DNA of 64,000 bases from Mytilus galloprovincialis. Taxonomy: Eukaryota. Below the pieces are notes generated by a model. The model did not search any database. It saw only the letters and a list, made by a program, of their open reading frames with translations, and was not told the DNA's origin. Numbering within the stretch: position 1 is the stretch's first letter; the number at the start of each line of letters is the position of its first letter. The position numbers were made by a program, and so were the translations under genes. The stretch lies in contig NC_134847.1 of NCBI RefSeq assembly GCF_965363235.1, positions 64,044,144-64,108,143 of the forward strand. The letters run 5' to 3'. Positions 1,497-64,000 of this stretch are shown piece by piece.

Positions 1497-1939
1497 TCAT
1501 ATCAAAATCAATTTCAACACTGATTTAATAAAGAAGACTATATATATATATATTTATGTTATATATCTGCATGTTGAATCCGTATTTTCCGGAACTGTAT
1601 AGTCTTAATCATGAGTGTTGTGATTATTACATGTATCCGCCTCTTTTTGTGTTTTAATCCAAAGTAAAAGGGTGTAATTTGAGAGCTCTTCATTTATTTA
1701 TATTCCATACTTGTCTTTAGTCCCCCAAACATGAGTCAGGTATATTACCTGGTGGAGGACCCTGGCATCGATCCCGGTACCTCTCGCATATAAATACAAT
1801 ATCGAAATGAGAAGAATAAGTGCATCAAACAGATTTTACATAATAAAAATGTGTAAGGGTTCCGTGGAACCCAGTGTCTCGCCTACTTTTGCTGTAAATT
1901 GCAGGATCAACAAAAATGAGGGAAAAAATCAATAAAAAT

Positions 1940-2640
1940 ATTCCGTTTGATACCATGTTTGGATTGTAGGAAGCTTCTGTCCAAGTTTGGTAAAAATCCT
2001 GGATAGTTTATGAATCTAATAAATGTTTTAAAAACTTTAACTGCAGACTGGATGTAATGTTAACTGGAAGAAAAACTAAGTCCTTTTATAAGTAAAATAC
2101 AGATACACAGGTACAAAATATTAACAAAATTTCCTTCTAGATACTAGCTTTTGATCATAAACAAGCTTCTGTCTTAGTTTGGTACAAATAAAAAATAGTA
2201 TAAGAAAGTTATCAAAATTTTTTAAAATGTAACCACAGAGTGAATGTGTTGTTTCCTGGCAGAAAAAAAGTCCATTTAAAGTAAAATATGGAAAAATGGA
2301 TTTGTCAATTTACAAAATTTACTTCTGGATACTATCTTATGATCATAAACAAGCTTCTGTCCAAGTTTGGTACAAACCAAGGATAGTTTAAGAAAGTTAT
2401 TAAAATTTTAAAAACTACAACCACAGAGTGATGTAATGTTTTCCCGCAGAAAAACTAAGTGCATTTATAAGTAAAATACGGAAAAATGGAATTTTATTTT
2501 CACAAAATTTACTGCTGGATACCATCTTATGATCATAAATAAGCTTCTGTACAAGTTTGGTAGAAATCCAGGATAGTTTAAGAAAGTTATTTAAATTTTA
2601 AAAACTTTAACCACAGAGTGAATATTTGTGGACGCCGCCG
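1940..2640. repeat. Tandem repeat, ~190-bp unit x ~3.5, followed by a GC-rich (CGN)n tail 2630-2700
   Basis: The marker aagcttctgt recurs at 1971, 2163, 2351 and 2541. Units carry the core atcataaacaagcttctgtccaagtttggtacaaa...aaccacagagtg. The array lies in CDC5L intron 4. Confidence 0.8.
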
Positions 2641-2889
2641 CCGACACCGACGACGACGGAATGTAGGATCACTTAGTCTCGCTTTTTCGACTAAAGTCGA
2701 AGGCTCGACAATAATATATTGTATTGAATTGTACTTGTGATTTTTGGGGGAGAATTTTTAATCATTACACAATTTAATCACCACATAAAAGATTTATGCA
2801 TTTAAGAATCATGAATATAACAATCCATCGAAAAATATTAACATTAATATTGCATTATAAAATATTATCATAACAAATGATCTTTTTTA

Positions 2890-11539: not shown

Positions 11540-13291
11540 ATGGCTTCTTCTAAGTCTTTACAAAGAGGACAAATTCCAGTAGGTTGTGAACTTTGTGATG
11601 GTGGGAATAAAATCAAATTTAAATGTTTGGACTGTCAACTTTTAATGTGCAGCCGATGCAAGGATAAAGTCCATGCTAGATTTAAAAATGCAACTGAACA
11701 TAGGATTAGAGACATTAAAGAGCTGGATCTGGAAGAAGAAGTGGATACATTTAACTTTAGAGATGTTAAATGTCTAGAACATCCAGACCAGGCTTGCTGT
11801 GTATACTGTCAAACTTGTAAGAAAGTCATCTGTTTAAAATGTGTAACCAAAGTCCACAATGGACACACCTTTATTGATGAAGAAGAGCTTAATGATAAAA
11901 AGACGATAACTAAAAGTGGACAGAAGAAAACTGATGAAAGTATACATAATTTGACCAGTACATTACACAAAGTTCAGGACATAAAAGATCAGGAAGATGC
12001 TAAATTTAGAAAAATCAAGCAAGATATCTTTAGTCACAGGGATGCTTTTAAGTGTGAAGTTGATAAGCATGCTGATAATCTTGTAAAAGATCTGGAGCAG
12101 ACATGGGAATTAAATAGCCAGGAAATCGGGGCAAAGCATAGCAAGATTAAGAAAACCTTAGAAAACTTACAGAGGAAGAGTAACACTGTAAAAAGTATTA
12201 CAACTTCAAAAGATTTTGTCAAATTCTTTGATGATTTTGATAAATTTGCTGTTTCTTTGTGTGGAGCTACACCACAAGAAAACCTTGAGTTTTCATTATT
12301 GAGGAGATTCTTGCCAGACAAAATTACAATGGTAAATTTTGGATCAAAGGAAAATAGAGGAAACTTGGAAATTCAACATCCTAAAATTGAGTTTAAAATT
12401 GCTAAACAATTCACCACACAATTAAGAAATGTTCATAATATTTGCAGATGTTCTGATGGTACTCTGTGGATTTATGATGGTATTCTTGAAAAGTTGCAAC
12501 ATATAAAATTTGATAATCAAAATATTACGATTATGTCAGAGTCAAACTGTTTTTCTATTTGTGACATGGCAGCAATGAATGCATGCACAAACCTGGTTGA
12601 AGCAGCCTTAGGTGAAACAAAACTGTTTATTATCATTGAAACAAAACTGTTTATTATCAATAGTAGCACTGTATGGCTCAAACATGATGAATCCAATTAT
12701 GATGTGAGACCATATACAAATTGTACATCACAAAGTCAACCAGTATGTGTCCATATAACCAAAGATAACAGAGTTATAGTAGGTGTAGGACGAAGAGGAA
12801 CGAAGGCTGCTGTGGTAGTGATGGGCCAGGATGGTGGATGCTTGGAAAAATATGAAGAAGACAGCAACAAAGAACCATTATTTACACAGCCTAGATTAAT
12901 TACAAGCACCAACAATGGCAATATCTGTGTTGTGGATGGGATAGATTCTGATTGTAGAGTCTTGGTATTAGGAAAAGTAGGAGATATCAAACAGGTGTAC
13001 ATTGGTCAACCAAAAATCAACACTGAAGAAAAAACATTTACGCCCTCTGACCTGCTTACAACTCCTGCAGATAATATTGTAGTTACAGATATATTCATTT
13101 CTACACTACACATATTGAACTCTGAGGGGAAATTTATTGGTCATTACAATCTGCATGACATTGGAATTATATATCCATGTAGACTCACTTTGTCTACAGA
13201 AGGACATATTTATGTAGGATGCTCAAATACAAGGGACAGCCCAGAAACTTTAAAAGCCAAAATTTATGAGTTGGAATATTCTGGATTCTAG
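11540..13291 (+). CDS. RING-less TRIM-like protein: B-box1, B-box2, coiled coil, C-terminal NHL-type beta-propeller (583 aa, single exon)
   Basis: An uninterrupted 1752-nt ORF. Two B-box zinc-finger spacings are present (CELCDGGNKIKFKCLDCQLLMCSRCKDKVHARFKNATEH and CLEHPDQACCVYCQTCKKVICLKCVTKVHNGH). A K/E/Q-rich heptad region follows (residues ~120-230). The C-terminal half carries NHL-like blades (NGNICVVDGIDSDCRVLVL, ADNIVVTDIF, EGHIYVGC). The ATG context is acatcaaaaATGG and AATAAA lies 35 bp after the stop. The architecture resembles the TRIM2/3/71-like family. Confidence 0.75.
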   Translation: MASSKSLQRGQIPVGCELCDGGNKIKFKCLDCQLLMCSRCKDKVHARFKNATEHRIRDIKELDLEEEVDTFNFRDVKCLEHPDQACCVYCQTCKKVICLKCVTKVHNGHTFIDEEELNDKKTITKSGQKKTDESIHNLTSTLHKVQDIKDQEDAKFRKIKQDIFSHRDAFKCEVDKHADNLVKDLEQTWELNSQEIGAKHSKIKKTLENLQRKSNTVKSITTSKDFVKFFDDFDKFAVSLCGATPQENLEFSLLRRFLPDKITMVNFGSKENRGNLEIQHPKIEFKIAKQFTTQLRNVHNICRCSDGTLWIYDGILEKLQHIKFDNQNITIMSESNCFSICDMAAMNACTNLVEAALGETKLFIIIETKLFIINSSTVWLKHDESNYDVRPYTNCTSQSQPVCVHITKDNRVIVGVGRRGTKAAVVVMGQDGGCLEKYEEDSNKEPLFTQPRLITSTNNGNICVVDGIDSDCRVLVLGKVGDIKQVYIGQPKINTEEKTFTPSDLLTTPADNIVVTDIFISTLHILNSEGKFIGHYNLHDIGIIYPCRLTLSTEGHIYVGCSNTRDSPETLKAKIYELEYSGF

Positions 13292-21479: not shown

Positions 21480-23390
21480 ACTTATAAGTAATATGATAAC
21501 TATATTTGGTATATGGATTCCTTGCAACATCTTCATGTCGATCTGTCAGGGTTAAGCTGACCTTGCCCTCATATTCATGGTTCATTGGTCAATGTAAAGT
21601 TATTTTGTTTTGGTTTGTTTTTTATGCCCCACCTACGATAGTAGAGGGGCATTATGTTTTCTGGTCTTCGCCTCCGTTCGTTCATCCGTCCGTCCTTGCG
21701 TTCCTCCGTTCGCCCCACTTCATGTTATTGTCGAGCCTGCAACTTTTGTTGCAGAAAGCTCGACATAGGGATAGTGATCCGGCAGCGGCGGCGTTAGCTA
21801 ACTTCTTAAAAGCTTTATATTTTAGAAGGTGGAAGACCTGGATGCTTCATACTTTGTATATAGATGCCTTATGTTACGAAGTTTCTGTCAGTCACATGTC
21901 CAATGTCCTTGACCTCATTTTCATGGTTCAGTATCCACTTGAAAAAAAAGTTCAGATTTTTTGTAATGTTGAATTCTCTCTTATTATAAGTAATAGGATA
22001 ACTATATTGGATAAGTGCGTACCTTGCAAGGTCCTCATGTCTGTCAGACAGTTTTCACTTGACCTCAACCTAATTTCATGGATCAGTGAACAAGGTTAAG
22101 TTTTAGTGGTCAAGTCCATATTTTAGATACTATAAGCAATAGGGCTAGTATATTCGGTGTATGGAAGGACTGTAAGGTGTACAAGTCCAACTGGCAGGTG
22201 TCATCTGACCTTGACCTCATTTTCATGGTTCAGTGGTTATAGTTAAATTTTTGTGTTTTGGTCTGTTTTTCTCATACAATGTGCAATAGGTCTACTATAT
22301 TTGTTGTATGGAATGATTGTAAGGTGTACATGTCTAGCGGGCAGATGTCATGTGACCTTGACCTCATTTTCATGGTTCAGTGGTCAAAGTTAAGTTTTTG
22401 AGTTTTGGTCCTTTTATCTAATTCTATATGCCATAGGTCAACTATATTTGGTGTATGGAAATAATTTATGATCTTTATGTCAGTCGTGCAGGTTTTTTTT
22501 TACCATGACCTCATTTTCACGGTTCATTGCACAGTGTTAAGTTTTTGTGTTTTGGTCTATTTTTCTTAAACTATAAGTAAAAGGTCAACTATATATGTTG
22601 TATAGAAGCATTGTTAGCTGTACATGTCTGCCTGGCATGGTTCATCTGACCTTGACCTCATTTTCAAGGTTCATTGGTCTTTGTTTAGTTATCTTGGTTA
22701 ATGTTCTGTTTATGTGATAGTTGTAATAAATTTTAGCTTTATACTTAGGACTATCAACATAATATCAATGATTAGTATAGAAGGCGAGACATTTCAGCAT
22801 GCCCACTCTTGTGTTAAAGTTTTTGGTCAAGGTAGTCTTTGATGAAGTTGAAATCCAATCAACTTGAAACTTAGTACAAATGTTCCCTATATGGTATAAT
22901 CTTTCTAATTTTAAGGCCAAATTATATTTTTTACCAAATTTCACAGTCCATTGAACATGAAAAATGATAGTGCGAGTGGGGCATCCATGTACTTAGGACG
23001 CATTCTTGTTTAAGTACTTTATTCAATAGGTCAACTATATGTTATGTTTTGAATGATAGCAAGAGGAACGTGTCTCTCTGCCAGATATCACATGACCTTT
23101 TCCTCATTTATTTGGCTCAATGGTCCAATATTAATAGCAATAGATCAGCTATGTTTGGTTTATGGTATACTTATGAGGCGTACATGTCTGTCTGGCAGGT
23201 ATCATGTGAACTTTAGCTCATTTTCAATTTTTTGTGTTTTAGTCTGCTCTTCAATTACTATAAGCATTATAATAGTTTAGTTATATTTGGTATATGAAAT
23301 AATTGTAAGGTATTCATGTCACATCTTCCTGTATCTGTTTGACAGAATTTATATGACCTTGACCTAATGGTCATGGATCTTTAAAAACAC
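21480..23390. repeat. Satellite-like tandem array, ~150-bp units with core gaccttgacctcattttcatggttcagtgg, ~12 units
   Basis: Units recur at roughly 21530, 21890, 22040, 22190, 22340, 22500, 22650, 23080, 23210 and 23340. The array is interrupted by the two halves of a MITE (5' half 21640-21790, 3' half 22780-23000). The 197-aa ORF at 21506-22099 is a translation artefact of the repeats. Confidence 0.75.
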
Positions 23391-26599: not shown

Positions 26600-27130
26600 T
26601 TTGCAATTTTAAATCTACATTTTTTATCGTAAGCTACCGTCAAATTCACTGTTGACATGTTGTAACCAAGGAGCCGCCATGTTGACTTTCTGAAATCAGT
26701 AAATGTGCGAATAATGCAATAGAACAGAAAACAAGCAACACCTACCTCAATACTTTATTTTAATGCAATTGTTTCCGAGTTTAGAAGGTAAACGCAGTAG
26801 AAAAACCTTCAGCTTTGACGTTTTCATTCGTATGACGTCATGTTTTTAAATGACGTTAATGCGCAAAAGTCATTACTGGAATTTCGCGGAATTTTAATTT
26901 ATTTTGTTTTTGTCCATTTTTCCGTTCTCTAATGTTTTAATTCTTTTTTGTTATGCATCAGAATCAGAATAAATGTTCTGTAGGGTTTTATTCAAGTGTA
27001 ATTGTTAACACTGCGAAATCCACAACCGTTTACACATAGGTTACGATACATGTGGATTTACGTGGGAGGCATATTTAAACAGCCATTTGTGTACATCTTG
27101 GAGTCTGCGCTAAGCATGGATATATCGAGA
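26600..27130. promoter_or_regulatory. Locally GC- and CpG-enriched island with a CRE palindrome TGACGTCA (26834-26841) and two TGACGTT half-sites; candidate promoter/enhancer of an unidentified gene
   Basis: gacgttttcattcgtatgacgtcatgtttttaaatgacgttaatgcgcaaaag. ccaaggagccgccatgttgac at 26659 is related to the satellite-unit core. No adjacent exon was identified. Confidence 0.25.
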
Positions 27131-30100
27131 ATTTTATCACGGTGTTTACAAAGCGAAAGAAGCACGTCATATTAGAATTTGCAACTACATGTGTTCTTAT
27201 CTTGATGAATATGCATGAAATATTTGCAACTGGACATGTAATCAACCAAATTTTAATAAATCAATCAAAGCCATGGTTATTCAATGAAGCAAAATAAAAG
27301 TAGGTTTTTTTAACATTTGATTCATGTTGTATTAAAAATAATATGAAAAGCAACAAATTTTCTAATAAAATTCACAAGATATGAAGTTATTAATCATATA
27401 TATAAGAACTTGCATAACATCATACTGCCATGAGGAGGAGTAGATTTTTTGTAGAGATTTAAATCACTTTATAAATCAGAAAAGCCATTAAACTTGTGAA
27501 AATAGCAAAATAAAATGAATACAGATTTGTTTTACAGTTTTGCACATGTGTATAGTGAAAGCTGGAATGAGTTTTAGTGAAGAGCATCTCAAATGATCTT
27601 TACTGTCAGTTGTTAAAGAGATGACTCATCTAAATCTGTACATTAGAAAAACGATGCCAGTGGTTTTTTGAATGGCAAGATCTGCTGCAGAATGGAATTT
27701 GAAATCCTGCAACTAATTAGCATAAGGTATGTGTGTATGAATTATTGAAAATGCATGTATTATAATAGATGTAGTGAATTAATTGGATTAATAGTTCTTG
27801 AATACTATATTGCAGCATAGCTATTAATGCTATTTACACATTCTGACAGTGCATGCATGGTGATTGTTATTGCATAAACAGGAAAGATTTTATTTTAAAA
27901 GTGACCTATATAGGGAATTTTGTTTACACAACAGTAAAGCATTAAATAGATTCAGAAACATTCTCATTGAAGCTTTAAGATTTATAATTTCCTGCCACAT
28001 TATTATTAGATATTTCCTTCTATTTCTTATAGAAGAACATAGTTATTTTTTTTTCTGGTTTTCTTACCAAGTTTGAAATAAATAAACTGTTCTAACATTA
28101 GAAGATCACTGTAAAATCTCTAGTGTAAAACATATAAACTGTTCATATTAGAAATTAGCTATTCTGTTCTGATATTAATGTACTGTAAAAATATAAGTGA
28201 ACCAACACCTGAAGTGGTGATTGTGCGGTAGGGTAAAAACGAGTGGATACCGCTAGGTATTCACAGTCATCTTGAAAAAAATGAAAATGTCGACAATAAA
28301 GATGATGCCTATCTTCTAGGCGAAACATGTAGACCCAATAAACAGATACTATGCGGTAAAAACATGAGTGTTGTTGTATTTATTGTCGACATTAATTACG
28401 TACTGTAGTAAAAGAGAAAAGATCACGCTCACCTGGATCAAGGTTATATGAGTAATTTGGGTTTTGTTACCTGTAACTTTTTTCAAATTTCTTTTTTAGC
28501 TCACTGGTCTAAAAGGCAATGTGAACTTTAGCAACCACTTGGCTTCTGATGCTGTTTTCCATCCATCGTTGTTAAGGTAAAGTACTGAAAGGCATTGTAG
28601 AATGTAAAAATAAATAAGTGAGGTATGATTGCCAATGAAACAAATTTCGACCATAAATGGCATGAATGTAAGCAGCTATAGGCTTTAAAGCCTGCAAATT
28701 GAGCATTACCTATGCTGTATAACTATAAGAACCTTGAACATGAAAGAATATGAAACAATTCAAATAAGAAAACTTATTCTGATTTACTGAAAAACAATAA
28801 AAGAAAATCAAGCAGACAGCAACCTGAATGACAACCATTGAATAACATGCTACTGACTTGGGACAGCTTCATGAAGAAATATTGGGTGTTAACACAGGTT
28901 TGTGAGGGTTCCAACTCCACAACCTTTTTAAGACTGCCTATTATTTTGCAGCTTTGATTTAATTGAGAAAAAAAACTGCAAATTAGTCAGTGTCCACAAT
29001 CAAAATCAAATGTTGAATCCCCTTAAATCCAATAAAGTAGGAATGAATTGTGAATCTGAAAAGTATTGGGTAAACCCTACATGTTTAGATTTAGATTTAT
29101 TTCAAAGATGACCTTCATCAGACATTGTACCGTGAAATTTATGACACTAGAGATATGCATTTTTATTCAATGACCATAAAAGTTGATAATTTTACTTTAA
29201 ACAAAATTCACTGAAGCTGAAACTAAACTATCTTCTTGTAATTTGATGAACAGTAAACATTTAAGGCATCAATACATTGTAAATTTATCGTAATATGACC
29301 CTGACTTTACTGAATAACTAAAATATTTGTCTTAGTATCATATTTCACATTGATAAACTACACGGATAACACTTTAGATGTCTCTTTATCAAATTTTGTG
29401 AACAATGTATATTTTTCGGCCCAATTAAATTTGAATATGATGATACTTGATAGTGTCTTTTGGTCGGCTGGGTAGATGGCTGATAAGGATTAAGAGTAGC
29501 TTCATTGAAAAGTATGCTCTCAAAAATATTGATAATTGTCTCAACGCATATGACATTTAACATTGTTGATATCCGGTTTTATATATCAATATCTTTAAGG
29601 TTACATTGTATTGTAATTACAAAGGTATGTAAGTTCTTTTGGAGTTTTACAGGAGTTGACATTTATAGAAGTAATAGGGATAGTCATAAATTCTAAAAAA
29701 AGTATGTCTATATATTTTTTTAATATGGTACAATAAATAAACGCCTTCCTACTTTGTTTAGCGTTGTTAAGACAGAGGGTCACAATGGTTATTATGTCTG
29801 TTCATTCATTTTGTCTTCCATCCAGGTTTTTTTTTATCCATAATTTGTCCTTAAATAGCTTATCTTTTCCTAGTCACAAATGTCTTCCATTATTAATTGG
29901 AATTAAACTTGTCTGATAAATTTGATAAAAATGTTCATTTAGCTATTGATTAATTAAAGTATAAAAAGATTTAGTAAATATCAACTATTAGCATAGACAA
30001 ACTTGTTGCCTTGTATGAATTTAAACCTTTTTTTGGTTACACAAATCCCAAACCCTGAATAAAAGTGAAACTACCTAATTAAGAGTCACTTATCCTATGT

Positions 30101-30289: not shown

Positions 30290-30660
30290 TATTATATTTA
30301 TGCCCATTTTTATGCCCAATTTATGGGCATTATGTTTTTCTGTCTATTGGTCTGTTTGTGCGCCCGTTCGTCCATATGTCTATTCTATCATCTGTCCGTC
30401 CGTTCGTACATTCATTTGTCCATCCATCTGTCCTGCTTCAGGTTAAAGTTATGGTTAAAGTTTTTGGTCAAGGTAGTTTTTGATGAAGTTAAAGTCCAAT
30501 CAACTTGAAACTTAGTTCACATGTTCTCTTTTATATGATCTTTCTAATTTTAATGTTAAATTAGAGTTTTGAATCGAATTTTACAGTCCACTGAAAACAG
30601 AAAATGATAGTGCGAGTGGGGCATCATTGTACTATGGACACATTCTTGTTTTTGCCTAAG
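30290..30660 (+). mobile_element. MITE-like element, same family as 480-745, intact copy
   Basis: It begins tttatgcccaatttatgggcattatg (a hairpin), has a cgtccgtccgttcgt-rich region and ends gatagtgcgagtggggcatc. Aligns to the other copies. Confidence 0.65.
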
Positions 30661-39821: not shown

Positions 39822-40867
39822 ATTCAGTGATGACTTGGCAACATAACTCAAGTATAACTTCTAAGATCTTTCAGAATGACTTGTATTGAAAAAAAATTAT
39901 GTCCATCAATGTGCAGTGAAATTTGTAAAGATTATTTGATGCATCTTGATGTTTTATTTATGTTACTTAGAATGAATTAGATTATATAACATTGTGCACA
40001 CCACTAGCAGTGCACCAAGGATTATTTGTGAATTAAGTAGACATTCATTGAATTTCCTTAATCCTCAATACACTCTTTACTTTAGTAGTGGTAAAGTTTT
40101 CTGTTTTCTATAAGATTTGTTCTAGATGCCTGTGAAATTTAATCTCAACGGAAAAATTGTGCAATGTAGCACATTTAACCATTAAGAAACTTATATAACA
40201 GAGATTTGTGAAACTTGATTTGTTTTATAAGAGCCATTAAAGATGTATTTGTTGACATGAAGGTTTTAGGTTCCATAATTTAATTTGTAGGTCAAAAGTT
40301 GTCAATGGAAAATAGAACAGAAGATTAAAAGCCAAGTGCTTTCAATTACCATAGGATAAATATGGTTCAGAATAGTACATGTATATTCAAACTTTGAAGT
40401 ATATCCAAGCAATAATCATAATGGTTTTGATACAGAAGTACATGTATTATTATGTATAAGGTTGAATAATAATTAAGACTGTGTTTGCATTCTGATCTTC
40501 TGAGTATTTTGTAAAAGATATATTGGTTTGCTGCTTACTTCCGTTTTCATTGGTTCATGGAACACAAGTAAGATTATTGCATGCATGGTTCTTGTATTCA
40601 TAATTTCATTACAATTTGGAAAAACTTAAGTACATCATTTGGGTTCCTTCATTTTTTTCCCCCAACCTTCAACCTTTCATGTAAGTAGGTGTTGTAGTAA
40701 AAAACAACATAACATGTTATTTAAGGGAGTAAAAGATAAGAATCGGTCAAACAATTCAAAAGTTGTAATCAATAGCACTTTAATCTAAAGTTGACATCAC
40801 TTCTGCAGATGGTACATGTCTTAAAATATCTATGTACAAATACCAAAATAAAGTATACAAAGTTTCT

Positions 40868-41350
40868 TGTAAAGAGAATAGATACATGAGTGTTTTGGTG
40901 GGTGTAGGTACGATGTAGCAGTGATTCTCTAAGCTTGTTGTAAAGAGAATAGATACATGAGTGTTTTGGTGGGTGTAGGTACGATGTAGCAGTGATTCTC
41001 TAAGCTTGTTGTAAAGAGAATAGATACATGAGTGTTTTGGTGGGTGTAGGTACGATGTAGCAGTGATTCTCTAAGCTTGTTGTAAAGAGAATAGATACAA
41101 GAGTGTTTTGGTGGGTGTAGGTACGATGTAGCAGTGATTCTCTAAGCTTGTTGTAAAGAGAATAGATACAAGAGTGTTTTGGTGGGTGTAGGTACGATGT
41201 AGCAGTGATTCTCTAAGCTTGTTGTAAAGAGAATAGATACATGAGTGTTTTGGTGGGTGTAGGTACGATGTAGCAGTGATTCTCTAAGCTTGTTGTAAAG
41301 AGAATAGATACATGAGTGTTTTGGTGGGTGTAGATACGATGTAGCAGTGA
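40868..41350. repeat. Minisatellite, 71-bp unit x ~6.8, >97% identical copies
   Basis: The unit tgtaaagagaatagatacatgagtgttttggtgggtgtaggtacgatgtagcagtgattctctaagcttgt starts at 40868, 40939, 41010, 41081, 41152, 41223 and 41294. The only variation is catgag versus caagag. Confidence 0.9.
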
Positions 41351-43504
41351 TTCTTCATTAATCTTATGACATCATTACTACCTGTAGGGATGATACAGCA
41401 GACTATATGTCATTATTTATTTACGCTAATTGATAATATACCTGTCTTGTTTTGTCACCTGGAGCAATCGGATAACAATAGGTCACATGTTGTTCTATGA
41501 TCATGTCTTATTAAATGACCCGACCAAAAAAATGTTTGTACGTTATATTGAAGTTGTAAATACTGTAAAACTGAATCCAAAAGACAATTGGTGACAGGCT
41601 TTTTTTTCAAAGTGTGAAGCTATACTGGATAGTTTTAAAGATGTTATCAATAATACACAATTTAATTGATGAATTAAGAACAGTCTAGTGAGTAGACATC
41701 CACTTACAGCAAAGCTGGGTAGTTAGTATCTTTGAGAACAGCAATTAAAAAGTGTCCTTTTAAGGTCTTTTTTTCTGAAATCATGAAGCATATAATAGGG
41801 GTTGGGTAATTTAATTGGAAAAATCAGACACATAAGATATGAAGAATTAGAGGAAATCCTTGGGAGGAAATCAGTACAGTGATAATGCATATTAAAAATG
41901 AGTATAACAAGATATCATAGAATTACTTGTTTTTGGTTCAAATATTTTATTTTTTAACATAATAATGACACTATAAGATTCAACTTTACTGTGTATGTTT
42001 AAAACAGAATGAGAGTGCTTTTCAGATACATCAAATATAAGCACCCTAGCAAGGATGTGTATTAGTTATAAATCCTTGACCCCTAGTACTTGTTATACAT
42101 ATAGTCCACATCTCCACATGACAGAGATAAGATACAGACAAAAAGATTTCCTATCTAATTGAATCTTATGCTTGATTATGTTTAACAAATTAGTTATCCA
42201 TAAAGTATTTATAGTTACAATGATTGTTGGTAATTAATAATTGATAATTATTGTATAGTTATTTCATTATAGTATGTAGTTTTAATTGTGGATTACACAT
42301 TATTGTCAAGTCATGATAATTAATTTACAGTGAAATCATATTATGTGAATCTATCAAAAATGTGGTCAAGTTTGGACAGCGATTTGGTTTAAAGAAGTAA
42401 AATTTTATACAGATGTGCCTTCTTTATGCATTTTAATTCAAGAACTGGTTTGTTTCTTTCTAGCGTAAATAAAAATGTAAGTGAAAAAAAATCAGTACTG
42501 AGAGGTTTCACTGTAAATATTGCCCAGATGGATAAATAAATGACCTTAGTTTAGAAAACATGTGGAGTAAGAGATCCTTATAAATGAAACTTTGGATTGT
42601 AGCTTTCCTTTGGGTTGTAGGTATGTTCTATTCACTATTTTGGGCATTGTAAATTTGTGGCTTTTTTTCTTTTTTGCTTTTAGAAATTGGGACATATATT
42701 GTTTTACAATTTGATGCATATGTATTACATGGTAAAGATTATGAACAGATTTATTTGAAATCCAGTTAACCGAAAGTGACAGGAGTTTAATAGTATCTTC
42801 CATATCTATTTACTTTTTTATGAAGATTTGTATAATATTACAACTCTCAGTTTTAATGTTGGGAGTATCATTATTGTCATTGAAAACATTACACTTTGCA
42901 TGAGTAATGATAAAGATAATGCTTACAAATAGCTGGAATGAACTTTGACATATTATCATGATTATCAAATAAGCAGAACTAGAGTTGGCTATATACCAGA
43001 TTGGTATAAATACAAACAAGATACCAGATTGGTATAAATACAAACAAGAGTCATATAGTGGAGTATACATCAATGTTCCTTAACCATAAAACACAATAAA
43101 ACGAGAAAGGCATAAAAAGGTCAGTTTCAGGTCTTCAATAAAAGATATATGGCTTCACAAAAACAAAAGTTTAAAATTTAAATAATGAATGAAATTAAAC
43201 CATCTGCCATCAAGAAAGGGCAACAAATGTTATGAATTACTTCATTTCGGAAATTTCCCCATGGTGGGATATTATTTTTGGTACAGAAAATACAAACTGA
43301 GTAACAAAGGTAGTAACAAATTTGTCAAATATTTTACAATCTATTAATTTTGGTATTTTTGAATCTTAAAAAAAAATCTGAGTTATCCCCCCTTGGCTGC
43401 TTTTTAGATTTACAAATTTTTATGAATGAATTTTTCTTTTTTAGATATATAATTAAATGGATTTAAATAATGTGGATTAATTCTGTGGAATAACTTCATG
43501 ATAA

Positions 43505-47720: not shown

Positions 47721-49143
47721 GCCCCTATACAAAAATGTGTACTAGTTTAGTAATTATTATAATGGAGGCCATACTGAACTAGGTTTCGGGGTTCAAATAC
47801 TAAAAATGGAATAGGAATATTAAACATGTTAAAGTTGTAATTAAGGTTGAAGCTTGACTCTTTGAGCTAGTGAATCATAATCCAAAGTCTGCCCCCTCAG
47901 AAACATTCTGCATAATGCCTATGATATCCTCATCATATATCTTGTACCAAACCTAATTTTTAATGATTATAAATGTTTACCAGTGTATAAACAAAAAAGC
48001 TAAAGTTAATGCAACAAAAGCAATGAAATATGCAGTTGTAACAGATTTCAGGAGATGAAAATCCAATTTTTCACAACTTGATAAGTAAATAGAAAACCAG
48101 GAATTACTAGTTATGAATAAAAAAATTGGGGAAAAACCTTAAAGAATATTTAGTGTAACTTTTCAAGATAAAAATTTTACTGCTTAAGATGCACATATTG
48201 ATGATGAATGTTGAAGTGTATCAACAAAATAAAAAAATGGGCGCCCTGATCGATTTTAACATCTAAAACAATACAAACTATGGGTTCTATTCACTTTAAT
48301 CATATACATTTACGAGAATAAGGGCTAGCTAAAATTCATGTATATATGAATGTTGTTGTCTGGTGTAAAACAAGTCTCCTATCTAAACTCGTAAACAGTT
48401 GAGTGTTTGTGTATGTGTCCATATAAAACTGGTTATAGGTATGATGGCCAATATGTAAACTGGTTTGTTTGACCTTTCCAAACTAGGTTATATCATTTCT
48501 CTTAAGTTATAATCTGAGATAGTGTCATGTCATATTTGTCATATACCATACTTGTCTCAGATTTTTAGATAAAGGAGATTTTATACAGATACCCTGATTT
48601 GTTATCTTAGATGTGAAAATGACAGAATGTTGTCCTGAATGTGAAATTATGATATATAAATTTAGAAGAACACTCAATATGTGTCAATCATAAGAATACT
48701 TTTTTAGTTTTCATTGAAAGAAATATTTTTTTGAGAATTAAAGACAGATTCTGATAATTTTACCAAAGATTTGTTTATTATATTACAGGTCGGAAAAGGA
48801 TTTTAAGAAGCCATCTAACATTCCATCAATTAATCAGTCAATAAATATTAAAGGTGCCTGTAAAGTAACGTAAAAAATTGTTATGCAGATTTTGTGAATA
48901 AAATATCCAAATTAAAGTGCTTCTTTTCAAACCTAAATTTTATTTCATAATCCTTCCTATGCATTTTGGTGCACCTCCATATCAATTACCATTTACACCA
49001 GTTTTCACCCTTGTGCAGGAGTTATCTCCCATTCTTACATAATTATAACAGTAACCTGTAAAAGATAAGTAATATTGAATTATCTCCAATTTTTGTGCTG
49101 TAATTTTTTTTGTATGCTTTTTATGTAATTTTTTTTTGTTTTT

Positions 49144-51166
49144 CGTTCATTTTTAGCTCACCTGGCCCGAAGGGCCAAGTGAGCTTTTCTCACCACTTGG
49201 CGTCCGTCGTCCGTCGTCGTCGTTAACAATTTACATTTTGAACTTCTTCTAGAGAACCACTGAATGGAATGGAACCAAACATGGCATGAATGTTCCTTAT
49301 GAGGTGCTGACCAAGAGTTGTTACTTTGTAGCCGATCCATCATCCAAGATGGCCGCCAGCGGCGGACTTAGTTTAACATAGGACCCTATGGGAAATGCAT
49401 ACAAATGACTTCTTTTAGAGAACCACTGAATGGAATGAAACCAAACATGGCATGAATGTTCCTTATGAGGTACTGACCAAGTGTTGTTACTTTGTTGCCG
49501 ATCCATCATCCAAGATGGCTGCTAGCCGGGGACTTAGTTTAACATAGGACCCTATGGGAAATGCATACAAATGACTTCTTTTAGAGAACCACTGAATGGA
49601 ATAAAACCAAACATAGCATGAATGTTCCTTATGGGGTGCTGACCAAGTGTTGTTACTTTGTAGCCGATCCATCATCCAAGATGGCCGCCAGCAGGGGACT
49701 TAGTTTAACATAGGACCCTATGGGAAATGCATACAAATGACTTCTTTTAGAGAACCACTGAATTGAATGAAAATAAACATGGCATGAATGTTCCTTATGA
49801 GGTGCTGACCAAGTGTTGTTACTTTGTTGCCGATCCATCATCCAAGATGGCCGCCAGCGGGGGACTTAGTTTAACATAGGACCCTATGGGAAATGCATAC
49901 AAATGACTTCCTCTAGAGAACCACTGAATGGAATGAAACCAAACATGGCATGAATGTTCCTTATGAGGTGCTGACCAAGTGTTGTTACTTTGTTGCCGAT
50001 CCATCATCCAAGATGGCCGCCAGCCGGGAACTTAGTTTAACATAGGACCCTATGGGAAATGCATACAAATGACTTCTTTTAGAGAACCACTGAATGGAAT
50101 AAAACCAAACATAGCATGAATGTTCCTTATGGGGTGCTGACCAAGTGTTGTTACTTTGTAGCCGATCCATCATCCAAGATGGCCGCCAGCGGGGGACTTA
50201 GTTTAACATAGGACCCTATGGGAAATGCATACAAATGACTTCTTCTAGAGAACCACTAAATGGAATGAAACCAAACATAGCATGAATGTTCCTTATGGAG
50301 TGCTGACCAAGTGTTGTTACTTTGTAGCCGATCCATCATCCAAGATGGCCGCCAGCGGGGGACTTAGTTTAACATAGGACCCTATGGGAAATGCATACAA
50401 ATGACTTCTTCTAGAGAACCACTAAATGGAATGAAACCAAACATTGCATGAATGTTCCTTATGCCGTGCTGACCATGTGTTGTTTCTTTGTAGCCCATCC
50501 ATCATCCAAGATGGCTGCCAGCATGGGACTTAGTTTAACATAGGACCCTATGGGAAATGCATACAAATGACTTCTTTTAGAGAACCACTGAATGGAATGA
50601 AATCAAACATGGCATGAATGTTCCTAATGTGGTGCTGACCAAGTGTTGTTACTTTGTAGCCGATCCATTATCCAAGATGGCCGCCAGCATGGACTTAGTT
50701 TAACATAGGACCCTATTGGAAATGCATACAAATGACTTCTTTTAGAGAACCACTGAATGGAATAAAACTAAACATTGCATGAATGTTCCTTATGAGGTGC
50801 TGACCAAGTGTTGTTACTTTGTAGCAGATCCATCATCCAAGATGGCCGCCAGCGGGGGACTTAGTTTAACATAGGACCCTATGGGAAATGCATACAAATG
50901 ACTTCTTTTAGAGAACCACTGAATGGAATAAAACCAAACATGGCATGAATGTTCCTTATGAGGTGCTGACCAAGTGTTGTTACTTTGTAGCCGATCCGCC
51001 ATCCAAGATGGCCGCCAGTGGGGGACTTTTGAATGAAATTAAACATGTTCCTTTCCTTATCAATGAGGTTGTGTTGTCACTTTTAGCCAAATTTTATATT
51101 TTTCATATGATTTCAAAAACCCAAGTAGAATCAGGTGAGCGATACAGGCTCTTGAGAGCCTCTAGT
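49144..51166 (+). mobile_element. Composite non-autonomous element: conserved hairpin head (ttcatttttagctcacctggcccgaagggccaagtgagc...cgtcgtcgttaac), internal 166-bp satellite array, conserved tail (caggtgagcgatacaggctcttgagagcctctagt)
   Basis: The head at 49144-49232 and tail at 51131-51166 are shared with the element at 62894-63700. The termini are imperfectly inverted (agctcacctg / caggtgagcg). The interior is a tandem array. Confidence 0.65.
49230..51020 (+). repeat. Satellite-like array, 166-bp unit x ~11, each unit with the GC-rich core catcatccaagatggccgccagcgggggac
   Basis: Exact 166-bp periodicity; for example the repeated minus-strand ORFs start at 49321, 49487, 49653, 49819 and 49985. 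Units are about 90-97% identical. The 62-aa MMDRQQSNNTWS... ORFs are artefacts of the periodicity. Confidence 0.9.
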
Positions 51167-54100
51167 TTTACATAAATAAGGCCGTTAGTTTTCTCGTTTG
51201 AATTGTTTTACGTTGTCTTATCGGGCCTATTATAGCTGACTATGCGGTATGGGCTTTGCTCATTGTTGAAGGCCGTACGGTGACCTATAGTTGTTAATGT
51301 CTGTGTCATTTTGGTCTTTTGTAAATAGTTGTCTCATTAGCAATTATACCTCATCTTCTTTTTTATATTTATTAATAGTTTTTTTATTCTTAAATATTCA
51401 TTACATCTACTCACATAATAAATTTAACAAATACATCAATGCTCTTTGGTTGGGTTGTTGTCTTTTTGACATATTCCCCATTTCCATTCTCAATTTTATT
51501 TCATTTTTTTTTGTTTAAAACTGCAATATCATAATGATGCATTGAATCAAAGAGATTAGGTTTTAATTGCTTTAAATTGACACCAATATAACTGAAATCT
51601 TTTGTTACAATTTTTACATCTAAATTTCTGATAAAAATCTCAATTGTACAAAAGTACTTTTAACAGGCTTTCATTTTCTTAACACAATTACTTTAAACAT
51701 GCATTTTTCAAATTAGAGTCTTTTGTGTCAACTTTTTTCCAGGTGAAAAATCCACTTTAGGGAACAAGTTAACTTTTGATTGATAGTATATTTGTTCAAA
51801 AGCCACAAATATTATATAACTGGGTATTAAAATCCCACCAGAGTTGATCTCATTATTTACACTGGGTATCTTATTGTTAGAAAATTATTTTATCAGCCTT
51901 TTCATGTTTAATTCTAAATATTTAGAGATAACACTTATACAGGGTCTAAAATCAATAAAAATCTAATGGTTATTAATTAAGTTGAAGGGAGCATAAAGTC
52001 AGATTGTCAATATTTTGGTCTCTTTTTTCATTTTGAGATTGTCCCCAAACAAAAGATAGCGGGAGTATGAATGGCTTGTATTCAACAACAAAGCAAGACT
52101 AGGACACATGTCATGTGTGTGAATCAATAGCCTCTACCATACTTCATCAAAATCTTGGATGTAGTAAACGATACATTGTAACATTGGATAACATTGGCAA
52201 ATTTTATGGGATGTTGTAAATTTTTAAATTGTTTGAACGTCAGCGGTTATTCGGTGACGGGAACCAATTGAAAGTTCACTGCTACGTAAATTTACTTAAG
52301 CAAATGTCAATAGAGTTTATGAATTTAAACGTTTAATTTAATGCAAAGGAAATGTAAACAGAGAACTCATGTGATATTAAAGACAAGACCCTTTGAAACA
52401 TGTTGAGTGGGTTCAAATTGCTCAGTGACACCCATGGTACGCAAGAGCTATTTGTAGCATTGTTCATTTTTGCCAGTTTATTATAAAGTCACATATAATC
52501 GATCCGTGTTTTGACCAGAAGGAAGCCTATAATAACATTTCTAGAAGTGATTGTTGCACTATTAATACTGTTGGATGTTTATTAATGCTATTTTCTGTGT
52601 CATATTATATGGATTTTATATTGTGGATTATTGTAACATGAGCAAATAAAGATGGCAAGGAATGATATAACTTCTAAATATCTTAAATTTAAAGGTAAGG
52701 TTCTACTTTTTTTTTTTAATAAAAATGGAATATGAATAAAAGAAAGAACACAAACAGGTATTGCAAGCTGAATTGGGTGTGAAAGCTTTATTTAAAAAGA
52801 TATTTTTTTTTACCATTTTAGTTTTTAATTGCTATAATGTTAAATTTCAAGCAAAATTCATTAAACCAAAATCTTGAATGACTTGATGATAATCAGATAG
52901 AACCCCATACATGTAAATTGAAATATGTGTACTAACCCCGCTTAGGTTGGATGAGAACCGAAATGTTGAGATATATACATGTTGAAATTACAATTTTTTA
53001 ATTGCCACGTTATGTTTCTCACCAGTTTGGTCCATATCATACCTTGACAGAGTTAGAACAAAAATTACAATTTCAACAAATATACCCTATTAGGATAGTA
53101 AATTATTTCAGTTTGTATGTATCAGTATGCCTTTCTTTTGACTAATGGGTGTTTTGTTAAAATTAAACATTTATTACAGGACTTTGTAATATTTATTTTG
53201 TGAGACCTATATTCAAACTTCTTTTTTTATTAGTTTATTTTTATGCATGTGATATATATTTAAATATTTTTTCATCCTTATATGTATAGTATCATAAATG
53301 CAGATTACTGAAATTGGATTTATGCAATATTTCCTTTTAATTATCAAAACATTTTTTTATGACTGTAAAAAGTGACTAAATCTTTTGTAACTCTATACAC
53401 CTGGCTTGTACTACAGACAAAGTTATTGGCTGACATATATATTTATTATTGTAAAGTTATCAAAAAAATGACTTAAATTGGATATTCAATGTCATAACAT
53501 CTGCTACGGTGTCTAACAGATTTAAGTAAGAATAGGAAATTATCTTATTAGAAAATGCGGACACCATATGTTGAATGATAAACACTCAGGAACTTAACAA
53601 ATTAAAGCTGACATTTCTGTCTCCTGAATCCTGATTATTACACATCAGACTGACATCAGTACTGTAATAATAATAGAAACAGTTATTGACTAAATCTGAA
53701 ATTATAGTAATTGATCAGAAATAGTAGTGGATGGTGTTCATGTCATTCTATGGGTTGTAAGATTTTAGCTTATGAGAATTGGACACATTTCCTCTCTAAA
53801 AATGGTATTTTGCCATGAAAATAAAGTCTTTTGTGATAGTATTCACAGAAAAAAAAACTAAATGAATGCAACACAATCTTGCTACACATGCATGACATGA
53901 ATTTATTAATTGTTTTGTTTATTATTATTTCTGTTGTAAATTCCCACTTCTATTGCTTGCATTACTCTTAAGGTCCACAGTGAGAAATATTTTATGGAAT
54001 TATAAGGGAAACATTATTAGAAATCAACCTCCTGGGAAAGCACTTTCCTACAAACCTAAAGTTGAGTTATCCTGCTAACTTTTACTATTCTGTAATGTCA

Positions 54101-62893: not shown

Positions 62894-63700
62894 TTCATTT
62901 TTAGCTCACCTGGCCCGAAGGGCCAAGTGAACTTTTCTCATCACTTGGCGTCCGGCGTTCGGCGTCTGTCGTCCGTCGTCCGGCGTCGTTAACTTTTACA
63001 AAAATCTTCTCCTCTGAAACTACTGGGCCAAATTTAACCAAACTTGACCACAATCATCATTAGGGTATCTAGTTTAAAAAATGTGTTCGGTGACCCGGCC
63101 AACCAACCAAGATGGCCGCCATGGCTAAAAATAGAACATAGGGGTAAAATGAAGATTTTGGCTTATAACTCTGAAACCAAAGCATTTAGAGCAAATCTGT
63201 CGGGGTAATATTGTTCATCAGGTCAGGATCTATCTGCCCTGAAATTTTCAGATGAATCGGACATTTCGTTGTTGGGTTGCTGCCCCTGAAATGGTAATTT
63301 TAAGGAAATTTTGCTGTTTTTGGTTATTATCTTGAATATTATTATAGATAAAGATAAACTGTAAACAGCAATAATGTTCAGCAAAGTAAGATCTACAAAT
63401 AAGTCAACATGACCAAAATGGTCAGTTGACCACTTTAGGAGTTATTGCCCTTTATAGTCAATTTTTAACCATTTTTCGTAAATCTTAGTAATCTTTTACA
63501 AAAATCTTCTCCTCTGAAACTACTGGGCCAAGTTCATTATAGATAAAGATAATTGTAAGCAGCAAGAATGTTCAGTAAAGTAAGATTTACAAACACATCA
63601 CCATCACCAAAACACAATTTTGTCATGAATCCATCTGCGTCCTTTGTTTAATATTCACATAGACCAAGGTGAGCGACACAGGCTCTTTAGAGCCTCTAGT
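62894..63700 (+). mobile_element. Second composite element with the same head and tail but a different internal tandem repeat (~500-bp unit x 1.3)
   Basis: The head at 62894-62990 has the same 5' 40 bp plus (CGN)n. The tail at 63668-63700 is caaggtgagcgacacaggctctttagagcctctagt. Internal units start aatcttttacaaaaatcttctcctctgaaactactgggccaa at 62993 and 63490. It contains ccaaccaagatggccgccatgg, which is related to the 166-bp unit core. Confidence 0.65.
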
Positions 63701-64000
63701 TGGCAGTTATAAAAAAAAAAATACAAATTCTAATGTTATTTACAATCAGAACATTTCATGCATTTCTATTTGAAATTCTTGGGTGGTTTTTGGAATAATA
63801 ATATTTCATTAGATTGTTGTGATGCGTTGTTGTGTGGATATGTTGTTGGTCATAATTATAGTCCTACTAAACACATATTTACATGGAGGGATGGCAATAG
63901 TTGGCATTAATTAGATAAGATGGTTGGAAGGACATGTGGAAACCATTTGCTTTCAAAAGCTTTTTCAGATTGTCCAAACTTATAAATGAAAGTAAATGAA

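Follow-up and report, generated by a model that had tools for sequence, protein, structure and literature searches.

Satellite-carrying elements of Mytilus galloprovincialis as probable non-autonomous Helentrons

The window analysed here, a 64,000-nucleotide stretch of contig NC_134847.1 of the mussel Mytilus galloprovincialis (assembly GCF_965363235.1), contains two elements with common ends, E1 (49150-51169) and E2 (62898-63701). In our analysis both are very probably non-coding, non-autonomous Helentrons (HINEs), of the same kind as DINE-1, pearl and Cg_HINE, which carry satellite DNA as cargo. The structural features by which HINEs are defined (PMC4067079, PMC7492417) are all present: subterminal inverted repeats (subTIRs), an inverted repeat (IR) close to the 5’ one and complementary to it, a 3’ subTIR followed by a palindrome, a microsatellite with oriented repeats, T-rich ends within a T-run, and an absence of coding sequence. 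The initial annotation of this DNA had proposed a satellite-carrying non-autonomous element of Helentron-like or pearl type that disperses arrays, and this anatomy supports the proposal. The implication that such an element is unusual was overstated, since the same system occurs genome-wide in Crassostrea gigas and similar elements are found in Donax and in Mytilus itself (MgE).

Boundaries and anatomy of E1

A cassette had been annotated at 49144-51166. The element is real and has the hairpin ends ascribed to it, but its start is the T-run at 49150, and the ‘gttca’ that precedes both window copies is flanking sequence, as judged from 12 independent 5’ junctions. These twelve junctions diverge directly before TTTTTAGCTCACC, while on the 3’ side the divergence begins after CTCTAGT(T)1-3 in eight junctions, and the end of E1 lies at 51166-51169. 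From 5’ to 3’ the 2.0-kb element consists of a T-run, the 5’ subTIR hairpin, a (CGTC)n microsatellite, 10.8 units of 166 bp, the 3’ subTIR, a palindrome and CTAGTTT. Its features are as follows:

49150..49154, + strand: 5’ terminal T-run TTTTT; 12 independent 5’ junctions break just before TTTTT(AGCTCACC)
49154..49164, + strand: 5’ subTIR TAGCTCACCTG, which pairs with the 3’ subTIR and is invariant in 12 heads
49155..49185, + strand: head hairpin of 13 pairs between the 5’ subTIR and the downstream IR (CCAAGTGAGCT), with loop GAA, from a DNA fold
49200..49223, + strand: CpG-rich (CGTC/CGTCC/GTC)n microsatellite, read directly, with a length that varies from copy to copy
49224..49241, + strand: 18-nt spacer TAACAATTTACATTTTGA from the microsatellite to the first monomer, with an identical junction in L004, L012, L013, L015 and L010
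49242..51028, + strand: central tandem array of 10 full 166-bp monomers (one of them 165 bp) and one 128-nt monomer, from Tandem Repeats Finder (TRF) and the monomer table
51029..51131, + strand: unique 3’ module (~100 nt) with GATTTCAAAAACCCAAGTAGAATC and a weak monomer-like remnant, from the 3’ junction alignment of L005, L012, L013 and L015
51132..51142, + strand: 3’ subTIR CAGGTGAGCGA, the inverted copy of the 5’ motif
51146..51161, + strand: 3’ palindrome AGGCTC-TTGA-GAGCCT, from the fold and the same position in 9 tails
51162..51169, + strand: 3’ terminus, CTAG and a T-run, with CTCTAGT(T)1-3 as the end in eight 3’ junctions

The 5’ motif TAGCTCACCTG is located at +5 of E1 and has CAGGTGAGCGA as its inverted partner. 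The reverse complement of this partner, TCGCTCACCTG, matches the 5’ subTIR perfectly over 9 nt, or over 11 nt with one mismatch. In E1 the palindrome ends 8 nt before the end of the element; the final sequence, running to 51169, is CTAGTTTT. Over the nine tails the palindrome shows the pair series T-A (E1), T.G (L013, L005) and C-G (L006).

That the head is a hairpin, as the initial annotation had it, is borne out by folding. As single-stranded DNA the E1 head reaches -13.3 kcal/mol (z = -5.66), and 0/200 shuffles were equally stable. Over 13 heads, 93.8% of the cells are paired, and two pairs are altered on both sides, for example from G-C to A-T in M. edulis. A short conserved stretch lies between the hairpin and the microsatellite, which had been described as (CGN)n and is actually (CGTC/CGTCC/GTC)n. 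The head plus microsatellite have a CpG observed/expected ratio of 1.30, versus 0.42 for the whole window. On the 3’ side, GATTTCAAAAACCCAAGTAGAATC is common to the E1-type copies, and the monomer-like remnant has a score of 26, compared with 17.4 +/- 2.5 (maximum 29) for shuffles, which is only suggestive. The longest open reading frame (ORF) in E1 has 76 amino acids, that is, the element has no coding capacity.

The 32-nt head is present in the window exactly twice, at 49153-49184 (0 mismatches) and 62901-62932 (1 mismatch), as is the 33-nt tail (51134-51166 and 63668-63700); by chance no occurrence is expected of either. In a BLAST comparison of E1 with E2 the likeness of the head extends over 79 bp at 92% and that of the tail over 35 bp at 94%. 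Neither of the two ends is part of the monomer, contrary to a possibility that the initial annotation had raised against itself: in local alignments with a monomer dimer the head scores 15 (shuffled, 14.7 +/- 2.2) and the tail 12 (shuffled, 13.6 +/- 2.1). Because head and tail each occur twice, with none expected, and neither resembles the monomer, the initial observation on E1 and E2 is real.

E1 lies within an older dispersed repeat, the two parts of which were recognised by comparing the joined flanks with seven paralogues:

49105..49149 (start approximate), + strand: left part of the host repeat
51170..51378, + strand: right part of the same repeat

Once joined, the flanks form one unbroken piece of the repeat, ...GTTTTTCGTTCATTTTTT^TACATAAATAAGGCCGTTAG..., and the seven uninterrupted paralogues (empty sites) cross the E1 junction at 75-85% identity, with the break within a T6-8 run. 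Because the paralogues are continuous across the joined flanks, we conclude that E1 occupies this T-run. The filled site has 5 + 4 Ts, compared with 6-8 in the empty sites, and any duplication could therefore consist of Ts only. There is a second, one-sided case: at ~1905-1975 of the window (minus strand) a T5 run is unbroken which, in L004, has the E1-type copy within it. The repeat that hosts E1 is itself abundant and dispersed, with a length of at least ~250 bp (...GTTTGTTTATGTGTTACATATTTGTTTTTCGTTCATTTTTTTACATAAATAAGGCCGTTAGTTTTCTCGTTTGAATTG...) and paralogues at, for example, L010 436-657, L007 15033-15241 and L008 6927-7136.

The satellite, the sister element and the family

The array at 49242-51028 was scored by TRF as 10.8 copies of 166 bp (94% matches, score 3175), in agreement with the 11-copy, 166-bp satellite of the initial annotation: there are 10 full units and a 128-nt unit. 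Thirteen further copies of the element were found, in DNA of M. galloprovincialis and M. edulis and in metagenome contigs that contain mussel sequence. When metagenome contigs were searched with a 26-nt part of the head, five were returned (L002-L006), and loci around the Mytilus paralogues of a B-box protein (see below) provided 130 kb of DNA from M. galloprovincialis, M. edulis and M. coruscus. In a monomer-only search the query, a 62-amino-acid ORF contained in each monomer, was free of head and tail. It returned six proteins, these being the relatives of the monomer ORF in the database, and 0/6 have a Pfam domain. Contigs L012-L015 are those of four of the six and all belong to one European Nucleotide Archive metagenome assembly. 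The head adjoins the array in 4/4 of these contigs, and the tail is present in 3/3 of those that include the 3’ side. Thus, in this small sample, the initial annotation's concern that arrays elsewhere might never be flanked by these ends does not hold. Over the whole sample, arrays are joined to a head or tail wherever the contig covers the side in question, with one 3’-truncated exception. Neither head nor tail had a match in a viral collection or in bacterial and archaeal genomes, as expected for an animal repeat. In the 130 kb of DNA, BLAST found:

L010 14611-15161: old E1-type copy
L008 7937-9125: complete 1.19-kb E2-type copy, M. edulis
L009: a fragment

The flanks differ from copy to copy on both sides, except that L010 and L015 have a common upstream flank (86-88% identity), with about 3 and 4.5 units, respectively; these two are one insertion in two genomes. 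The monomer counts of the E1-type copies are:

E1 (window): 10.8
L015: 4.5
L014: at least 3.5
L010: about 3
L004: at least 2.7
L012: 2.6
L013: 2.2
L005: at least 1

In all eight E1-type copies the orientation of the array and the junction between the left module and the array are the same. The first monomers of separate copies are mutual nearest neighbours (p-distance 0.012-0.066), and a cassette of few monomers therefore predates transposition. The E1 array is the longest and most homogeneous in the sample, with a mean within-array distance of 0.055 compared with 0.110-0.152 for the arrays of other copies; from E1 to those arrays the distance is 0.082-0.111. Its monomers differ from one another at 1-15 positions, and the interior ones are closest to each other, with m3 and m6 only one site apart. 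This pattern indicates that the E1 array probably grew by local expansion, either in E1 itself or in its immediate master lineage. A higher-order repeat in this array was considered and rejected, since m3 and m6 alone are near-identical and m4/m7 and m5/m8 are not.

The sister element E2 has the following features:

62898..63701, + strand: sister element E2, 804 bp, from head, tail, BLAST and alignment
62903..62933, + strand: head hairpin
~62947..62987, + strand: microsatellite
63107..63120, + strand: core sequence in a diverged homologue of the monomer
63666..63676, + strand: 3’ subTIR
63680..63695, + strand: palindrome, followed by the end CTAGTT

E2 had been annotated at 62894-63700 with the same head and tail as E1, which stands, and with an unrelated internal repeat, which does not. 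TRF and BLAST find no true tandem array in its interior; what had been taken for one is a partial duplication of a ~500-bp unit. The first ~135 nt past the microsatellite are 63% identical to the first monomer region of E1, and when the core is left out the interiors still align with a score of 10, compared with -16.7 +/- 5.2 for shuffles (0/500 reach it). The core, CCAAGATGGCCGCC, lies 117 nt from the microsatellite in E1 and 116 nt in E2, and the L006 subfamily links the two interiors in BLAST. From the interior identity, the nearly equal offset of the core and the bridge provided by L006 it follows that the 166-bp unit is an amplified ancestral internal segment. Our results thus show that this unit derives from a segment common to the E2 and L006 subfamilies.

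According to Thomas et al. 2014 (PMC4067079), Helentrons that are identical over at least 11 nt of the subTIR belong to the same family. The 5’ subTIRs of E1 and E2 are identical, which places both in one family by this definition, whereas their last 60 bp are 73% identical, too little for a common subfamily; E1, L012 and L015a (84-93% over the last 60 bp) make up one subfamily. We therefore regard E1 and E2 as members of two subfamilies of one family, with L006 as a third that has the same head. An older relative is also present in the window:

28488..28575, + strand: old, CpG-decayed, 3’-truncated remnant of a head and microsatellite of the same family, from BLAST

This agrees with the degenerate, CpG-depleted head that had been noticed near 28485-28545. 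The decayed head (~28488-28546) is 76.7% identical over 60 bp (E = 7.6e-6), and the CpG observed/expected ratio of the remnant is 0.30.

Two observations on L004 and L006 touch the same family. On the minus strand of L004, at ~78-1, a 3’ subTIR (AAGGTGAGCGACAC) is fused straight to an E2-type interior (CTACTGGGCCAAATTAAACC...) and the palindrome is absent. This is a chimeric junction, where one element's end meets another's interior, and recombination and mis-terminated rolling-circle copying are candidate causes of it. In L006, at ~715-1850, the third-subfamily HINE is split by a ~1.1-kb insertion with inverted ...CCAGGCATGAGAA... ends, which contains an ORF-like stretch and a YY1-like motif (GCAAGATGGCGTCC).

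Mobilisation, relatives and alternative classifications

Since the anatomy of E1 and E2 equals that of HINEs item by item, we suggest that an autonomous Helentron, with its Rep/helicase(-endonuclease), would mobilise them in trans by way of a rolling-circle intermediate that is single-stranded, as in the family to which they appear to belong. Recognition and termination would be signalled by the 5’ hairpin of subTIR and IR and by the 3’ subTIR with its palindrome. Our data show entry into T-runs, within which a target duplication is not recognisable. The satellite would travel as cargo of master copies with 2-4 monomers, which is likewise shown here, by the orthologous first monomers and the identical junction of left end and array. 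The interior monomers may then have been amplified locally to 10.8 units; the pattern is visible in E1, and the process could have been unequal exchange or replication slippage.

Among known elements, the closest in structure are the Cg_HINEs, eleven elements that carry most of the satellite-like arrays of C. gigas, genome-wide (Vojvoda Zeljko et al. 2020, PMC7492417). They have the order of modules seen in E1: a 5’ subTIR, an IR 1-12 nt away, a GTCY/GTCC/GTCK microsatellite, a variable spacer, repeats, a 3’ subTIR and a palindrome. Their repeats are satellite-like, 140-180 bp long, mostly in up to 5 copies and of fixed orientation, to which the 166-bp unit of E1 is comparable, and like E1 they have T-rich (or TT) targets and insertions into other repeats; they have no target site duplication (TSD), which may hold for E1 as well. 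The ‘group 2’ of Cg_HINE, with related flanks and different repeats, corresponds to the situation of E1 and E2, although the repeats of the latter turn out to be diverged homologues. The host there is an oyster and here a mytilid, and the comparison made is one of anatomy. The pearl elements of Crassostrea virginica (CvA, CvE and CvG) and DTC84 of Donax trunculus (PMC3879986), compared with E1 by their descriptions, have core repeats of ~160 bp in 1-6 copies and an ACGG microsatellite, the reverse complement of the CCGT/CGTC motif in E1 and E2. They also have an 11-nt inverted repeat, in a terminal position at one end and a subterminal position at the opposite end, and AA/TT ends, as here. Pearl and DTC84 have been described as MITEs (miniature transposable elements with inverted repeats) and in the opposite orientation, and the DTC84 monomers end in a 12-nt palindrome, unlike the 166-bp unit, which has none. 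MgE, from the same species as E1, is presented as pearl-like with central repeats in the papers that cite its description (Kourtidis et al. 2006, cited in PMC3879986 and PMC7492417); by the account in PMC3879986 it reportedly lacks the microsatellite segment that is clear in E1 and E2. The DINE-1 elements and HINEs of Drosophila, mites and mosquitoes (Thomas et al. 2014) have 13-bp subTIRs with the IR 3-22 bp from the 5’ one. Like E1 and E2 they possess the microsatellite, central repeats as an optional part, a stem-loop on the 3’ side, TT as target and a variable number of terminal Ts (PMC4067079). For DINE-1 (98% identity) and the Culex HINEs (>95%) an autonomous Helentron with matching ends has been identified, whereas none was found for E1 and E2 in the Mytilus DNA sampled. 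In the papers searched we found nothing on the Mytilus satellitome, Mytilus HINEs or this Mytilus family, and text matches to the head sequence were due to chance.

Several observations weigh against a Helentron origin. No autonomous Helentron (a Rep/Hel/APE ORF with the same termini) was found in the Mytilus DNA sampled, and regular expressions for the HUH, Y and Walker A motifs gave zero matches when 226 kb of Mytilus DNA was translated in all six frames. For the rolling-circle step we accordingly draw on the established biology of the family. The 3’ palindrome by itself is energetically unexceptional (-4.7 kcal/mol, z = -1.0), and compensatory support for the head hairpin is modest, the two altered pairs being equalled by 11/500 shuffles. 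Within a T-run, a 2-bp TT target duplication is indistinguishable from Ts borne by the element. Moreover, no orthologous empty site at the same locus was obtained. The M. edulis E2-type copy in L008 lies 0.9 kb upstream of the B-box gene, in a rearranged region that has no counterpart in the window, and an ORF across the 3’ end of E1, looked up for the same locus in other individuals, gave no record.

An alternative is that E1 and E2 are classical MITEs, moved by cut and paste by a DDE transposase, with the short inverted repeats as binding sites and TT/AA as a 2-bp TSD. This was the original interpretation of pearl and DTC84, and AA is read as the TSD in PMC3879986; the 9-11 nt inverted repeat at both ends and the 9 Ts of the filled site, against 6-8 in the empty paralogues, would fit it. 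The right inverted repeat, however, is subterminal (~27 nt from the end), with a conserved palindrome after it, whereas the left one pairs with an adjacent IR, and the number of terminal Ts varies among copies (2-4 at the 3’ end). Such an asymmetric layout is diagnostic of Helentrons, and pearl has been re-classified accordingly (PMC7492417, PMC4067079), so that we regard a MITE origin as improbable. Still less probable is a canonical, Helitron1-type non-autonomous Helitron, which should have a 5’ TC, a 3’ hairpin and CTRR and be inserted between A and T. While the 3’ end, a palindrome and CTAG followed by T, fits CTRR|T, the 5’ end is TTTTTAGC and not TC, the preceding base over 12 junctions is a, a, c, t, a, g, g, c, t, c, g and t, and the subterminal inverted repeats seen here are absent from canonical Helitrons.

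Two further readings have hardly any probability. In one of them the head would be the A-box-like part (TAGCTCAnnTGG) of a tRNA-derived short interspersed element or other retroposon, beside a B-box-like GGCCCGAAGGGCC, and TAGCTCACCTGG does, to our knowledge, superficially resemble an RNA polymerase III A box. The two ‘boxes’, however, lie side by side, where a distance of 30-60 nt would be expected, and neither a tRNA (ARAGORN) nor an Rfam family (E <= 1) was detected in the element. There is no A-rich or simple-repeat tail, since the 3’ end is a palindrome and CTAGTTT, and a target duplication of variable length is not seen. The other is that of an immobile resident satellite locus, the borders of which look conserved through segmental duplication. 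It would account for the upstream flank common to L010 and L015, but the remaining copies have unrelated flanks on both sides, the likeness of E1 and E2 is limited to about 80 + 35 bp of the ends, and E1 breaks a dispersed repeat at a single point. A non-autonomous Helentron thus remains by far the best classification of E1 and E2.

The GC-rich core, neighbouring sequences and implications

The initial annotation had reported the core CCAAGATGGCCGCC in every unit and at further places. It is exact in 9/11 units and present in E2, while the other two units have decayed by CpG-to-TpG changes, and the supposed copy at 26669 reads ccaaggagccgcca and is no match at up to 1 mismatch. The core contains CAAGATGGCCG, an exact vertebrate YY1 site, within 49345-51014 in the E1 monomers and at 63108-63118 in E2; the YY1 site in the promoter of human LINE-1 has the same sequence, as does the consensus probe used for YY1 in electrophoretic mobility shift assays (PMC10619931, PMC4763200). 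In 206 kb of Mytilus DNA it has 11 exact occurrences, all within this HINE family. It is conceivable, as a long shot, that the E1 array may be more than passive cargo, namely a Helentron-dispersed cluster of ~10 phased YY1/Pho-type sites at nucleosome-length spacing. If this were true, the cluster could work near mussel genes as a promoter that is mobile, as a Polycomb-response element or as a module that organises chromatin. We rejected the notion that constraint within the monomer is strongest on the core, since the 3’ 45 nt are invariant in 9/10 full units and the core is CpG-decayed in two. This 3’ box varies in older copies, and homogenisation therefore explains its invariance better than constraint does.

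Other parts of the window and of the sample also contain HINE-like elements. A second family is found in the window at 21618-~23010 (+) and ~30290-30651, and at L010 5513-5818 and L007 14378-14665. It has a T-run, a hairpin ATGCCCCACCTACGATAGTAGAGGGGCAT, a CpG-decayed (CGTC)n and a tail with GGGGCAT. The window copy has an array of 147 bp x 4.2 (22060-22679), and since the L010 and L007 copies (~300 bp) are array-free, this array looks like a later gain. A third element, at 1858-2730 (-), has an array of 190 bp x 3.4 (1971-2621), a (CGTC/GGCG)n at ~2625-2655, a hairpin-rich head (2660-2715) and a 3’ palindrome GGGTTCC-AC-GGAACCC (~1866-1881); its inverted repeats were not confidently identified. 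The 3’ part of this element is the paralogous empty site of the E1-type insertion in L004. Over all the Mytilus DNA sampled, TRF recognised some 17 arrays (136-190 bp, 2-4.5 copies).

A minisatellite of 71 bp x 7.0 (98% matches) lies at 40860-41354; it was checked for HINE ends and has none. A ~70-bp satellite, Mg3, has reportedly been described in M. galloprovincialis. At 11540-13291 (+) there is an intact single-exon B-box/NHL (TRIM-like) gene encoding 583 amino acids. Its product is 98% identical to a M. galloprovincialis protein and 90% to a M. edulis protein, which marks the window as mussel DNA, and paralogues of it are numerous in Mytilus. In M. edulis the sequence upstream of the orthologous gene is wholly different.

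E1 and E2 represent a common and already well-described class of bivalve mobile DNA, and current understanding of it is unchanged by them. They add a Mytilus case to the picture from oysters, clams and flies, in which short euchromatic satellite-like arrays are mostly cargo of non-autonomous Helentrons. For genome annotation this means that such arrays should be masked and classified as HINE cargo and not as independent satellites. Both of the steps that have been proposed to lead from a transposon to a satellite, namely the dispersal of a 2-4-monomer cassette and its subsequent local expansion, here to ~11 homogeneous units, can be followed within this small sample.

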